From Chitinophagales bacterium (GTDB lineage: Bacteria; Bacteroidota; Bacteroidia; Chitinophagales; UBA2359), in the NCBI GenBank assembly GCA_049613665.1, contig JBMZCV010000010.1, positions 1-52,035 of the forward strand: a DNA stretch of 52,035 nt. The letters are read 5' to 3'. The translations under genes were made by a program, and so were the position numbers. The notes under the pieces are model-generated. The model searched no databases, had not been told where the DNA came from, and saw nothing but the letters and a program-made list of their open reading frames with translations. Of the stretch, positions 9,706-13,429 are shown in pieces. How positions within the stretch are numbered: the stretch's first letter is position 1; each line of letters starts with the position of its first letter.

Positions 9706-9885
9706 CAATAGTTCTGACATTTTTTATAACAATTTTCAGTTTCATAAAAAAACTTCTTTTGACAAGTGAAACATACTATTTTCAGTTCAAAAGGCCATTA
9801 AATTTGCAAATATTGGCCACCTTAACCTAAAAAAAATAGTACGTTTAAACTTTTGATAAAAAAATGTATAAATGTCCGAACTGTT
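9706..9885 (-). mobile_element. MITE-like repeat element, copy A, about 180 bp with terminal inverted repeats, inserted between cysO and moeZ.
   Basis: Reverse-complement match to the elements at 12479-12659 and 51959-52035. The termini are CAATAGTTCTGACATTTT at 9706 and AAATGTCCGAACTGTTG at 9869-9885. Confidence 0.75.
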
Positions 9886-9917
9886 GAAATAAGAAGTTAA
9901 AAATTATTTTTTTAATG

Positions 9918-10725: not shown

Positions 10726-11667
10726 TTACAAAAAAATATGCTTTAATACTTCGCCATATTTCTCTGCATTGTCTGCGAAAATCGTGACAATAGTGCCTTC
10801 TTTTATCTGTTCTGCAACTTGAATCGCACCAACCAAATTTGCGGCTGCCGAAGGACTCAATAAAATACCTTCTGTTTGTGCAACATGTCGAATCATGTCG
10901 TAAGCTTCCATCGTATCGACTTCCAAATTTTGATGTGCAATGCTGCCGTCATAAATTCGAGGCACTTTCGCTGTTTCGAGATGTTTCCAACCTTCCATAC
11001 CGTGCAAAGCCGAATTTGGCTGAAACGAAATCAGTTGAATATTAGGGTTCAACAATTGCAATTTTCGGCTTGTGCCAACAAAAGTTCCTGTTGTGCCGAT
11101 TCCTGTTGCGAAATGCGTAATTTTTTGATTCGTTTGCTCAAAAATTTCTACTGCTGTTGTCTCGAAATGTGCTTTCCAATTGTTTTCGTTAGCATATTGG
11201 TCGGCATAAAAATACTTGTTTGGATAAGCTGCTGCCAACTCTTTAGCTTTTGCTTGCGAGCCATCTGTGCCATCGAAACGAGAAGTATAAATGATTTCTA
11301 CGCCAAGAGCTTTGAGAATTTGCTTGCGTTCTGCCGAAGCATTTTCTGGCAAACACAAACTTACTTTTATGCCCAAAGCCGCTCCGATAGACGCATAAGC
11401 AATGCCTGTATTGCCACTTGTAGCGTCTAAAAGCGTTATGTTTTCATGTATAAATCCTTGATTAACAGCATTTTTTATGATGTTGAAAGCTGGCCGAGCT
11501 TTTACACTTCCACCAAGTTGTTGCCATTCTAGCTTGGCAAAAATTTGTATATTCTTTTTTTGAAAAGCTCTTTTTATTGGAAACAAAGGCGTATTTCCGA
11601 TAAAAGATTGTATGTTTTTGAGTCTTTCAAGAAGTTTTTGGCTGACTTGTCGTTTTACTTGATTCAT
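10726..11667 (-). CDS. cysM: PLP-dependent cysteine synthase of the CysM type (uses a thiocarboxylated carrier and O-phosphoserine/O-acetylserine).
   Basis: 313-aa ORF with the fold-II PLP motifs GGSVKARPAFNII and TSGNTGIAYA. It is the first gene of the cysM-mec-cysO-moeZ block. Confidence 0.85.
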   Translation of the reverse strand: MNQVKRQVSQKLLERLKNIQSFIGNTPLFPIKRAFQKKNIQIFAKLEWQQLGGSVKARPAFNIIKNAVNQGFIHENITLLDATSGNTGIAYASIGAALGIKVSLCLPENASAERKQILKALGVEIIYTSRFDGTDGSQAKAKELAAAYPNKYFYADQYANENNWKAHFETTAVEIFEQTNQKITHFATGIGTTGTFVGTSRKLQLLNPNIQLISFQPNSALHGMEGWKHLETAKVPRIYDGSIAHQNLEVDTMEAYDMIRHVAQTEGILLSPSAAANLVGAIQVAEQIKEGTIVTIFADNAEKYGEVLKHIFL

Positions 11668-11694
11668 TTTATGATAGACGTTTTTTGTATGGCG

Positions 11695-11738
11695 AAAAAA
11701 AAATGCACTTTTTCAACTGAATGAAAAAGTGCATTTTT
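11695..11738 (-). terminator. Attenuator terminator T2, a perfect intrinsic terminator 28 nt upstream of the cysM start codon.
   Basis: On the minus strand the sequence reads AAAAATGCACTTTTTC-attcagtt-GAAAAAGTGCATTTTT followed by nine T. The stem is a perfect 16 bp. Confidence 0.75.
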
Positions 11739-11763
11739 GATAAAAAATATTTTTTACAATAAA

Positions 11764-11847
11764 TTACATAGCTACGCCTTTCCACTTTTGGTGAATGAAA
11801 CAACAACAGCAGCAACAGCAATTGATATGTAAATTTGTAAATAACAT
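11764..11847 (-). CDS. Cysteine leader peptide 1: MLFTNLHINCCCCCCCFIHQKWKGVAM, with seven consecutive Cys codons.
   Basis: Reverse complement of 11764-11847 reads ATG TTA TTT ACA AAT TTA CAT ATC AAT TGC TGT TGC TGC TGT TGT TGT TTC ATT CAC CAA AAG TGG AAA GGC GTA GCT ATG TAA. It lies between terminator T1 and terminator T2. Confidence 0.7.
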   Translation of the reverse strand: MLFTNLHINCCCCCCCFIHQKWKGVAM

Positions 11848-11872
11848 GTTTAGATAATTTTTCAGTAACAAC

Positions 11873-11927
11873 AAAAAATAGAAAAAGCCTTTCTTATGAC
11901 CAAATAGTCTTGTAGAAAGGCTTTTTC
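11873..11927 (-). terminator. Attenuator terminator T1.
   Basis: On the minus strand the sequence reads GAAAAAGCCTTTCT-(20-nt loop)-AGAAAGGCTTTTTC followed by TATTTTTTGT. The stem is a perfect 13 bp. Confidence 0.65.
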
Positions 11928-11968
11928 AAACATTGCAATGTTTATATAATAACACAATCTTTCCACAT

Positions 11969-12022
11969 TTATGGACAATACATAAAACAGCAACAACAAC
12001 AAAATGAATGAATTAATCGCAT
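11969..12022 (-). CDS. Cysteine leader peptide 2: MRLIHSFCCCCCFMYCP, with five consecutive Cys codons plus one more.
   Basis: Reverse complement reads ATG CGA TTA ATT CAT TCA TTT TGT TGT TGT TGC TGT TTT ATG TAT TGT CCA TAA. It lies about 40 nt upstream of terminator T1 on the minus strand. Confidence 0.55.
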   Translation of the reverse strand: MRLIHSFCCCCCFMYCP

Positions 12023-12478
12023 AATGAGAAAGATTGAAATATTCTATATTATTTAATACTAAGCGTTTATTTTTAAACGGACTGCTATAATACGGCGTTT
12101 TTTTTAGAAAAACAAACCTAGAACATCATAAAAGTTACAAAGTGTATCTTTAATCAGTTTTGTGACATAAAATTGACTTTTTGGATTATTTTGCTTTACC
12201 CAAATAAAATAATAGTGTGTTTGTATTTGAATGTTTGCTTTTTATTCGTATTTTGAAAAAAAACAAATATTTTGCTTTTTTACTGAAAATAGTAATAAAA
12301 TAGTGCTTTTTTCCTTTTTATATTTTGACAGTTTTTTCACATTCCTTATTTTACACCATGTTTTCTAAAAAAAGATGTAAATTTATTGTTCAAGACTAAT
12401 TTTTAATTTACGCTGTGTCAAAGGCTATTGAATAATAATGCTATTTGTGCTAACACCTTAAAAAACTTGTTAGTTTAC

Positions 12479-12659
12479 CAATAGTTCGGATATTTATACG
12501 TTTTTTATCAAAGACTTAAACATATTATTTTTTTTAGGCTAAGGTGGCCACTATTTGCAAACTTTATAGCCTTTTGAACTAAAAAATAGTAGGTTTCCCT
12601 TGCCAAAAGGTGTTTTTTTATTCGACTGAAAATTGTTATAAAAAATGTCCGAATCATTG
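12479..12659 (+). mobile_element. MITE-like repeat element, copy B, 181 bp with 17-18-bp terminal inverted repeats.
   Basis: Left terminus CAATAGTTCGGATATTT; right terminus AAAATGTCCGAATCATTG, which is the inverted form. A possible 5-bp target-site duplication, TTTAC, flanks it. An internal GGCTAAGGTGGCCA core is shared with copies A and C. Confidence 0.75.
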
Positions 12660-12748
12660 TTTACATAAACTGTAAAATAAATTTGTCCAAATACTTACTA
12701 AACATAAGTTTATTTTTTAATTTATATTATAAAGTTAAATCTACTTAA

Positions 12749-13429
12749 TTGATGAAATCAAAAATTGTATTAATAACGGTTTTATTTTTCTCGCTATTCA
12801 TGTTTAGCAACTGCTCCAACTCAGCTAGTTGTACTGATGGCATTCAAAACCAAGGCGAAAGAGGGATTGATTGTGGCGACGATGCTGGCTTATGTCCTGC
12901 TTGTTCCGATTGTACCAATGGTATTAAAGATGGTGGAGAAGAAGGCATAGATTGTGGTGGGCCAAATTGCGACCCATGCGAAACAGCAGTAGCGAGCTGC
13001 ACTGATGGCATTCAAAATCAAGGCGAAGAGGGCATAGACTGTGGCGGCCCTTGTACGGCTTGCGACCCTATTATTATAGGTGGCGATGCTGCTATGACAG
13101 CAACCATAGATACGGTAGCATTTGTAGCTACTAGCGTAGTGGCAGTTGTGGTTGAGCCACTTGTGAGCATCACAGGAAATGCTGGCGATATAGGAATTGC
13201 TTTGTCTTATTCTGGCACATTAGAAACAGGTACTTTCGACTTGGCAAGTGCTACGATGACACAAGATGTTATCTCTTGTACATCTACTAGCGGCACGATT
13301 ACATTTTCGAGCGTAGATACCGACAATCAACTTTTATCTGGCTCATTCGAGTTTGATTGCAACGATATTTTGGGTGGTACAGGCGACCATAGCATCACAT
13401 CTGGTACTTTTGAAAATGTAAGTTTCTAA
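12749..13429 (+). CDS. Secreted lipoprotein with three tandem Cys-rich modules (about 25 aa, four Cys each).
   Basis: The signal/lipobox is MFSNC. The repeats are SCTDGIQNQGERGIDCGDDAGLCPAC, SDCTNGIKDGGEEGIDCGGPNCDPC and ASCTDGIQNQGEEGIDCGGPCTAC. A Thr/Ser/Val-rich C-terminal half follows. The modules are also visible as DNA repeats. Confidence 0.65.
   Translation: MMKSKIVLITVLFFSLFMFSNCSNSASCTDGIQNQGERGIDCGDDAGLCPACSDCTNGIKDGGEEGIDCGGPNCDPCETAVASCTDGIQNQGEEGIDCGGPCTACDPIIIGGDAAMTATIDTVAFVATSVVAVVVEPLVSITGNAGDIGIALSYSGTLETGTFDLASATMTQDVISCTSTSGTITFSSVDTDNQLLSGSFEFDCNDILGGTGDHSITSGTFENVSF

Follow-up and report, generated by a model that had tools for sequence, protein, structure and literature searches.

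What controls a cysteine biosynthesis operon whose first gene is preceded by tiny open reading frames (ORFs) filled with runs of cysteine (Cys) codons? The question is raised by a 52,035-nucleotide (nt) stretch of DNA from a Chitinophagales bacterium (Bacteroidota; GenBank assembly GCA_049613665.1, contig JBMZCV010000010.1), referred to here at its full length as the window, in which such ORFs lie directly upstream of a cysM-like gene. The initial annotation proposed a Cys-keyed leader-peptide attenuator in front of a CysO-type operon. We examined this proposal by RNA folding and by comparison with 80 loci fetched around cysM relatives from Bacteroidota and Balneolales, and both the comparative evidence and folds with a masked ribosome footprint bear it out. 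The cysM leader very probably acts as a ribosome-mediated transcription attenuator that senses charged tRNA-Cys, and it contains two attenuators in series. Short ORFs in the leader of a biosynthesis operon, clusters of the cognate codon, intrinsic terminators and mutually exclusive antiterminators were all found in silico. The leader and the operon are encoded on the minus strand, and coordinates are given below in the direction of transcription.

The unit adjacent to cysM (the proximal unit) begins with the ORF MLFTNLHINCCCCCCCFIHQKWKGVAM at 11847-11764. As the initial annotation stated, its translation contains seven consecutive Cys codons (TGC TGT TGC TGC TGT TGT TGT; 11820-11800, codon positions 10-16), with both synonymous codons mixed. 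The stop codon is followed after 25 nt by terminator 2 (11738-11695), which consists of a 5' arm (11738-11722; AAAAAUGCACUUUUUCA), a loop (11721-11716), a 3' arm (11715-11699) and a run of nine Us. The perfect hairpin, the U-run and the distance from the stop codon are as annotated, but the stem is 17 rather than 16 base pairs (bp) long and is A/U-rich, with four G-C pairs and a predicted energy of -20.0 kcal/mol. The last T of the nine-T run (11703-11695) is 27 nt from the cysM-like ATG. A simple terminator scan of the window did not list terminator 2, because the maximal stem absorbs the first five of the nine Ts as its last five pairs, and not because the hairpin is weak. The fold of the 203-nt leader was more stable than those of 200 out of 200 shuffled sequences (z = -3.3).

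A candidate antiterminator overlaps both of these parts. Its 5' strand, AGUGGAAAGGCGUA (11786-11773), lies inside the leader ORF (codons K-W-K-G-V), separated by 14 nt from the last Cys codon upstream and by 7 nt from the stop codon downstream, and pairs with UGCACUUUUUCAUU (11733-11720) to form a duplex of -11.7 kcal/mol, the best register in a duplex search. The same two segments had been singled out in the initial annotation, in the register AAAAGUG:CACUUUU. That register is possible, but we estimate it by hand at about -5 kcal/mol, and it is absent from the suboptimal duplexes listed up to 4 kcal/mol above the best. In the ribosome-free fold, the proximal Cys run itself pairs with the antiterminator strand, resembling the 1:2 helix of classical attenuators.

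The element had been delimited at 11695-11847. These coordinates describe the proximal unit correctly, but they miss a second Cys leader and terminator located just upstream (12022-11871). This distal unit begins with the ORF MRLIHSFCCCCCFMYCP (12022-11969), which has five consecutive Cys codons (12001-11987, positions 7-11) and a sixth at 11977-11975. Terminator 1 (11927-11871; -21.2 kcal/mol) is composed of a 5' arm, GAAAAAGCCUUUCU (11927-11914), a 19-nt loop with a small inner stem, a 3' arm, AGAAAGGCUUUUUC (11894-11881), and the tail UAUUUUUUGU; loci of the Saprospiraceae and Cytophagales types have its arm motif, AAAGCCUUUC/GAAAGGCUUU, as their family consensus. Here the antiterminator 5' strand, UGUGGAAAG (11967-11959), begins 2 nt past the stop codon, and its partner, CUUUCUACA (11919-11911), starts within the 5' arm of terminator 1 and runs slightly beyond it. 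Against shuffles, the duplex, at -11.4 kcal/mol, has z = -2.7 and p = 0.025. The proximal leader's ATG follows 23 nt past the U-run of terminator 1. Because a second complete ORF and terminator sits upstream of the proximal unit, the window leader holds two attenuators in series.

We then folded each unit with a ribosome footprint masked. With the footprint at the Cys run, reaching 13 nt beyond a Cys codon, and with the RNA cut off ahead of the terminator 3' arm, both units folded the antiterminator (in the proximal unit as AGUGGAAAGG/CUUUUUCAUU plus GUA/UGC). With the footprint at the stop codon, the antiterminator strands were covered and only the terminators formed. The mutually exclusive structures that the initial annotation had recommended looking for were thus found once the ribosome was taken into account.

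These folds suggest the following scheme. Each unit would combine a Cys-run ORF, an intrinsic terminator about 25-45 nt past its stop codon, and an antiterminator strand at or just past the end of the ORF. When Cys-tRNA is plentiful, the ribosome translating the leader would reach the stop codon and cover the antiterminator strand, so that the terminator forms and transcription ends. When Cys-tRNA is scarce, the ribosome would instead stall in the Cys run, about 14 nt upstream of the antiterminator strand, which could then pair with the terminator 5' arm once that arm is made; no terminator would form, and RNA polymerase would read on. A polymerase that reads through the first unit would meet the second, where the test is repeated, and only then cysM. 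Two serial units should lower leakage and steepen the response, their effects presumably multiplying each other.

Among the 80 related loci, which include one CysM 93% identical to that of the window, with many others following at 60-72% identity in Saprospiraceae, Chitinophagaceae, Cytophagales, Flavobacteriales, Sphingobacteriales and Balneolales, we searched the sense strand, up to 700 nt upstream, for short ORFs containing three or more Cys codons in a row. This comparison, which the initial annotation had called for, gave the following result: 68 of the 80 loci have such an ORF upstream of cysM, 12 of the 68 have two in tandem, and a terminator hairpin comes after nearly all of the ORFs, 75 leader ORFs in total. 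Tandem short-tail distal leaders occur in at least 13 related loci. As to the 12 loci lacking an ORF with three or more consecutive Cys codons, two have less than 100 nt of upstream sequence. Four more of the 12 (L020, L039, L044 and L063) have Cys-rich short ORFs with paired Cys codons only, two of them in tandem in L039, and another two (L029 and L030) have their leader ahead of a gene placed before cysM. Every Cys run shares its frame with a start and a stop codon; the runs range from 2 to 8 codons, in single and tandem units, and the peptides outside the run vary in length and sequence. Both units are retained in the 93% relative (L082): the distal ORF is the same as in the window, the proximal ORF has five Cys codons instead of seven, and terminator 2 shows a compensatory U-A to A-U change between the two.

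The hairpins with U-runs behind the 75 leader ORFs have a median energy of -16 kcal/mol and start a median of 28 nt past the stop codon. In a MAFFT alignment of 45 proximal leaders, 93.9% of the cells of the terminator helix are paired and 10 of its 11 pairs change on both sides; the covariation score of 0.548 compares with 0.284 for shuffled alignments (0 of 500 reach it) and with at most 0.29 when the partners are slid. The 3' tail of the leader ORF (in the distal type, the first bases past the stop codon) repeats the terminator 3' arm and varies together with the terminator between clades. Since the tail copies the 3' arm, it can pair with the 5' arm. The matching pairs are as follows: the tail GGAAAGG (encoding WKG or RKG) goes with the 5' arm CCUUUCC, GGUGGAG (encoding VIWVED) with CUCCACC, GGUGAGG with CCUCACC, GGAAUGG with CCAUUCC, and CGCAAAG with CUUUGCG. 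The strongest pairing of each tail class is with its own arm class. Duplexes with the own arm have a mean of -10.7 kcal/mol and those with the arms of other loci a mean of -8.0 kcal/mol (permutation p < 1e-4), and against 200 dinucleotide shuffles each, the tails pair with their own arms at a mean z of -2.1, with p at or below 0.05 in 39 of 75.

The antiterminator helix itself was followed in several ways. When all classes are aligned together by MAFFT, the main two kinds of tail are one column out of structural register, so that a single antiterminator structure cannot be counted on this alignment; counts were therefore made within one class and on model-fitted alignments, and duplex energies were tested without alignment. 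In the covariance-model-fitted alignment (59 rows, including some false positives, and leaning toward the tested structure by construction), 89% of cells are paired, five of seven pairs show compensatory changes, and the covariation score of 0.187 exceeds 500 of 500 shuffles (mean 0.126) and all slid versions. The position of the helix is also constrained. The antiterminator strand starts a median of 14 nt past the Cys run (10th-90th percentile, 9-20), and its start lies no more than 13 nt past the stop codon in all of 52 cases. Either distance agrees with the size of a ribosome footprint.

This spacing bears on the first of several other explanations for the locus, namely that the leader is controlled by something other than a ribosome (an RNA-binding protein responsive to cysteine, an RNA that binds a small molecule, or Rho), with a secondary role for the Cys codons. 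Balneolales cysM leaders that keep the Cys run without an obvious U-tract terminator would fit such control, as would one locus (L014) that keeps the tail, antiterminator and terminator with one Cys codon. Against it, no Rfam riboswitch or protein-binding leader was matched; the sole feature invariant across clades is that an ORF has a Cys-codon run, in which TGT and TGC alternate freely; and the antiterminator strand keeps footprint-sized distances from both the Cys run and the stop codon. Because only a ribosome would impose spacing of this size, we favor the ribosome as the sensor and consider control by another factor very improbable. An explanation that keeps the ribosome would have the poly-Cys ORF gate ribosome access to the cysM start, the hairpins not being regulated terminators. 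Poly-Cys short ORFs of M. smegmatis do act in this manner (bioRxiv 10.1101/834739). In the window, though, the hairpins carry U-runs and leave the start region uncovered, terminator 2 lying 27 nt and terminator 1 about 200 nt before the cysM ATG; the alternative pairing is aimed at a terminator arm, not at the start region; and this hairpin-plus-U-run design is retained in 75 leaders. Translational attenuation thus appears very improbable here.

The remaining two explanations would deny the Cys runs a regulatory role toward cysM. Conserved as reading frames that invariably retain the Cys run, the ORFs might accordingly encode functional small Cys-rich peptides (metal- or redox-active, or precursors) that have their own terminators and merely adjoin cysM. 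Yet length and sequence outside the run are not conserved, the Cys count drifts between five and seven in 93%-identical relatives, and the conserved peptide tails (WKG, VIWVED) are explained as RNA copies of the local terminator arm, with which they change. In addition, 27 nt leaves cysM no room for a promoter of its own, and the association is specific to cysteine and sulfur genes. We regard functional peptides as a most improbable account. Alternatively, each ORF might have arisen by chance over a slippage-prone TGY (TGT or TGC) repeat beside an ordinary terminator; trinucleotide repeats can expand by slippage, and run length does vary between close relatives. From base composition, however, one expects about 7e-7 runs of at least seven TGY codons, and about 9e-4 of at least five, per strand of the window. 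Runs of four or more TGY codons occur nowhere on either strand of the 52 kilobases (kb) except in the two leaders, which carry them in tandem on one strand, 180 nt apart. Across the 80 loci, which span several orders, there are 68 runs of at least four TGY codons in 38.6 kb of upstream sense strand and 7 in 1,075 kb elsewhere, an approximately 270-fold enrichment, and four of the seven runs found elsewhere are themselves leaders. Together with the constant frame of the runs relative to start and stop codons, these numbers already refute a chance origin, for which the probability is negligible.

Several observations weigh against the attenuator reading, or against parts of it. At equilibrium the terminators win by about 9-10 kcal/mol, and the switch must therefore be kinetic, as in trp. 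In the window, the proximal antiterminator is marginal against shuffles (z = -1.6, p = 0.055) and includes three G-U pairs. The distal unit is without a clear 1:2 protector helix, having a small UCCA/UGGA hairpin only, and its sixth Cys codon is so near the stop codon that a stall there would cover the antiterminator strand. Among the relatives, the Chitinophagaceae-type class taken alone has its antiterminator 90% paired (39-64% when slid) but with weak covariation, and RNAalifold gave no consensus antiterminator for the truncated alignment of Chitinophagaceae-type leaders, since a long-range helix of 7 bp that encloses some 55 nt of A/U-rich spacer falls short of what that program rewards. 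Two covariance models built from relatives (R1 and R2) did not match the window's own leaders and gave some false positives on the minus strand; membership of the window in the family is for that reason argued from its architecture and from the near relative L082. Close coupling of transcription and translation in Bacteroidota is an assumption of the scheme, the promoter described below is a motif match, and the support for the attenuator is in silico throughout. Even so, the case for attenuation is stronger than a reading of the window alone would allow, because of the tandem unit, the phylum-wide spread, the covariation and the further regulated genes.

Where would the transcript begin? Promoters of Bacteroides and Flavobacterium follow a TAnnTTTG-type consensus, and we identified a candidate Bacteroidota-type promoter at 12141-12113, consisting of TTTG (12141-12138), a 17-nt spacer and TAGGTTTG (12120-12113). 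Transcription from it would start near 12106. Some 91 nt separate the motif from the first leader ATG downstream of it, a distance suggestive of a transcript that has a 5' leader and is not leaderless. From 12112 to the start of cysM, a pattern search of the minus strand found TAnnTTTG nowhere else. Because of this, and because only 23 nt separate the two units, one transcript passing both attenuators appears to be the simplest reading. A sigma-70 promoter scan of the window was set aside, as its consensus is not applicable to Bacteroidota. Upstream of the first leader, a 725-nt A/T-rich stretch (12023-12748) with no ORF longer than 50 amino acids extends to a divergent DUF6252 gene (12749-13429, plus strand).

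The operon behind the leader comprises four genes. The first (11667-10726) encodes a 313-amino-acid cysM-like cysteine synthase dependent on pyridoxal phosphate (PLP) (Pfam PALP, E = 2e-64), which among NCBIfam models scores highest with cysM but stays under the equivalog cut-off. Next come a mec-like JAB/MPN metalloprotease of 138 amino acids (10664-10248; Pfam Prok-JAB, E = 1.6e-21), a cysO-like sulfur carrier of ThiS/MoaD fold with 92 amino acids (10196-9918; Pfam ThiS), and, as the last gene, a moeZ-like adenylyltransferase/sulfurtransferase of 411 amino acids with profile matches to ThiF and rhodanese (9745-8510). A terminator scan found a terminator-like 16-bp hairpin after moeZ (8471-8436), which probably marks the end of the operon. 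The set cysM-mec-cysO-moeZ, with all four domains present, is the domain set of the CysO sulfur-carrier route to cysteine of the M. tuberculosis type, and 68 of the 80 related loci have this gene order. Judged from domains, with NCBIfam scores below the equivalog cut-offs, the operon would belong to this route. The CysO-like carrier ends in ...AGGSF, two residues past Gly-Gly. By the precedent of JAMM-processed sulfur carriers, it would need trimming by two residues to expose Gly-Gly, which fits the adjoining JAB protease gene. In the closest relatives, two Sulf_transp (YeeE/YedE-like) genes lie between cysO and moeZ (L081:2520-3501 and L082:2284-3265), where the window has a gap of 172 nt (9746-9917).

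Genes other than cysM also stand behind such leaders. In a Sphingobacteriales metagenome-assembled genome (MAG), a six-Cys leader with terminator (L029:2377-2560) precedes a 1-Cys peroxiredoxin gene that is itself followed by cysM-mec-cysO-moeZ, and the same arrangement of six-Cys leader, terminator and peroxiredoxin gene ahead of cysM recurs at L030 (about 2300-2500). A second leader of the former locus, with five Cys codons and a terminator (L029:6762-6900), lies after moeZ and before a gene for a Cys/Met-metabolism PLP enzyme; from the two leaders of this locus it follows that several operons can be under one type of control. In Fodinibius roseus DSM 21986, a leader ORF, MNNETQNHNFSAISTAMRMDMCMCCCMNPLKGSGADMSK (L077:2665-2783, minus strand), lies upstream of a divergent gene for a 280-amino-acid double-rhodanese protein, together with an antiterminator strand; its terminator, GCCCACUACC...GGUAGUGGGC and then a U-run, is strong. 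The leader was retrieved by the covariance model, and similar rhodanese leaders occur at L074:2852-2931 and L072:2469-2548, both on the minus strand.

The modules of the element appear to vary. In seven Balneolales loci (L050, L060, L066, L072, L073, L074 and L077), cysM leaders located 100-200 nt upstream have six to eight Cys codons directly followed by a stop codon, and then a conserved hairpin, UUACCGG...CCGGUAA, with a long C/U-rich loop and no U-tract, except perhaps in L066; the read-out may differ there, for example by being Rho-dependent. In a Ferruginibacter MAG (L014:3345-3450), the tail, the antiterminator strand UGUGGAGG and the terminator are kept, and just one Cys codon is present in the ORF, MTNRLLYLKHSKVICGG. 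Decay or re-purposing of the attenuator could account for this, as could an assembly error, the MAG being nanopore-based. Since the Balneolales loci are without a clear U-tract terminator and this MAG without a Cys run, either the output or the input module can change. A metagenome contig (L081:1-745) encodes a CysM identical to that of the 93% relative but has no leaders, compared with L082 and with window positions 11660-12130: upstream of the terminator 2 U-tract, its sequence is unrelated and includes an opposite-strand ORF of 133 amino acids with no Pfam match. It could be a natural attenuator-free variant, an insertion or rearrangement, or an assembly chimera.

In its design the leader resembles the trp, his, leu, thr, pheA and ilv attenuators of Proteobacteria. 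It shares with them a leader ORF rich in codons for the end product, a terminator before the first gene, an antiterminator that shares a strand with the terminator and would be masked by a ribosome at the stop codon, and, as predicted for the proximal unit, a 1:2-like helix. It differs in the amino acid, in the phylum and in having two units in series for the same signal. No Rfam family matched at its gathering score, either in a permissive scan of the window leader or at 16 related loci. The sub-threshold resemblances, which also included assorted hairpin families, were rejected: Phe_leader (RF01859), the best of the leader models at 19 bits against a gathering score of 55, reflects a generic hairpin resemblance, and the Treponema denticola motif TD-1 (31.5 bits against 64.5), matched by the distal leader and terminator 1 (window 11878-11991, minus strand), shares three hairpins in the same order, again generic.

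The initial annotation called Cys leaders rarely described. Rare they are, but they have been predicted in Actinobacteria and Rhodobacterales and shown in Mycobacterium smegmatis. Cys leaders without terminators were predicted in Actinobacteria in 2005 (Seliverstov et al., PMC1262725), and leaderless poly-Cys short ORFs of M. smegmatis were shown experimentally to be translational attenuators (Canestrari et al. 2020, bioRxiv 10.1101/834739), whose authors stated that, to their knowledge, no cysteine upstream-ORF attenuator had been described before. The mycobacterial elements and the present ones have in common consecutive Cys codons upstream of cysteine operons, a sensing of Cys-tRNA by stalling that is predicted for the present ones, and control of several operons per genome (a 'ribulon'), here seen in relatives. 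The mycobacterial ORFs, however, are leaderless, act in the studied case by freeing a sequestered ribosome-binding site, and have no terminators that were found, whereas each ORF of the window is followed by a hairpin and U-run ending at least 27 nt before the cysM ATG, with an alternative helix that competes with the terminator. The uORFC-8-2 motif upstream of cysS in Rhodobacterales is a predicted attenuator (PMC8632094) with tandem Cys codons, a terminator stem and a U-run. That motif is a single unit in Alphaproteobacteria, has two Cys codons near position 14-15 and targets cysteinyl-tRNA synthetase; the window has runs of five and seven and a PALP cysteine synthase, not cysS, downstream.

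Serial arrangements also have precedents. The Salmonella mgtCBR leader holds tandem attenuators in which two short ORFs answer different signals (PMC3641672); the window leader likewise has two attenuation units, but both would read the same signal. Two same-signal units in series are found in tandem glycine riboswitches and tandem T-boxes; here the pair would operate through ribosome stalling. Within the phylum, the Bacteroid-trp motif is a structured leader before an amino-acid biosynthesis operon. A transcriptomic study of Flavobacterium psychrophilum mentions leader-peptide attenuation in general terms, and the parts of it available to us describe no cysteine-specific element (PMC9723704). 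The present leaders share phylum and general mechanism with both. We found no description of a cysteine attenuator in Bacteroidota in the literature, with coverage of subscription journals incomplete, so that this absence is not proof. The mechanism, then, is a textbook one and involves no new principle; what we did not find described is the combination of cysteine, Bacteroidota and two units in series. Taking the relatives together, we lean toward an apparently undescribed family of Cys-tRNA attenuators across Bacteroidota and Balneolales that also controls other sulfur and cysteine genes (peroxiredoxin, Cys/Met PLP enzyme and double rhodanese), amounting to a 'Cys ribulon' with an evolutionary origin independent of the mycobacterial one, with a fixed serial pair in one lineage.

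Cysteine has long been without a textbook leader-peptide attenuator, and the mycobacterial case that has been studied acts on translation. The window locus and its roughly 70 relatives offer a terminator/antiterminator version with natural variants in arm and tail class, run length, and single or tandem arrangement. They are a candidate for a new entry in RNA family databases, which would improve the annotation of short ORFs. They also appear to be a good system for relating run length and serial arrangement to sensitivity, for studying the coupling of transcription and translation in Bacteroidota, and for tracing how cysteine and sulfur genes are coordinated in a phylum without a known dedicated regulator. 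If the attenuator reading is true, the serial pair of same-signal units would act as an ultrasensitive switch. Bacteroidota make weak use of Shine-Dalgarno sequences, and the prevalence of the family would imply that transcription and translation are nevertheless tightly coupled in this phylum.

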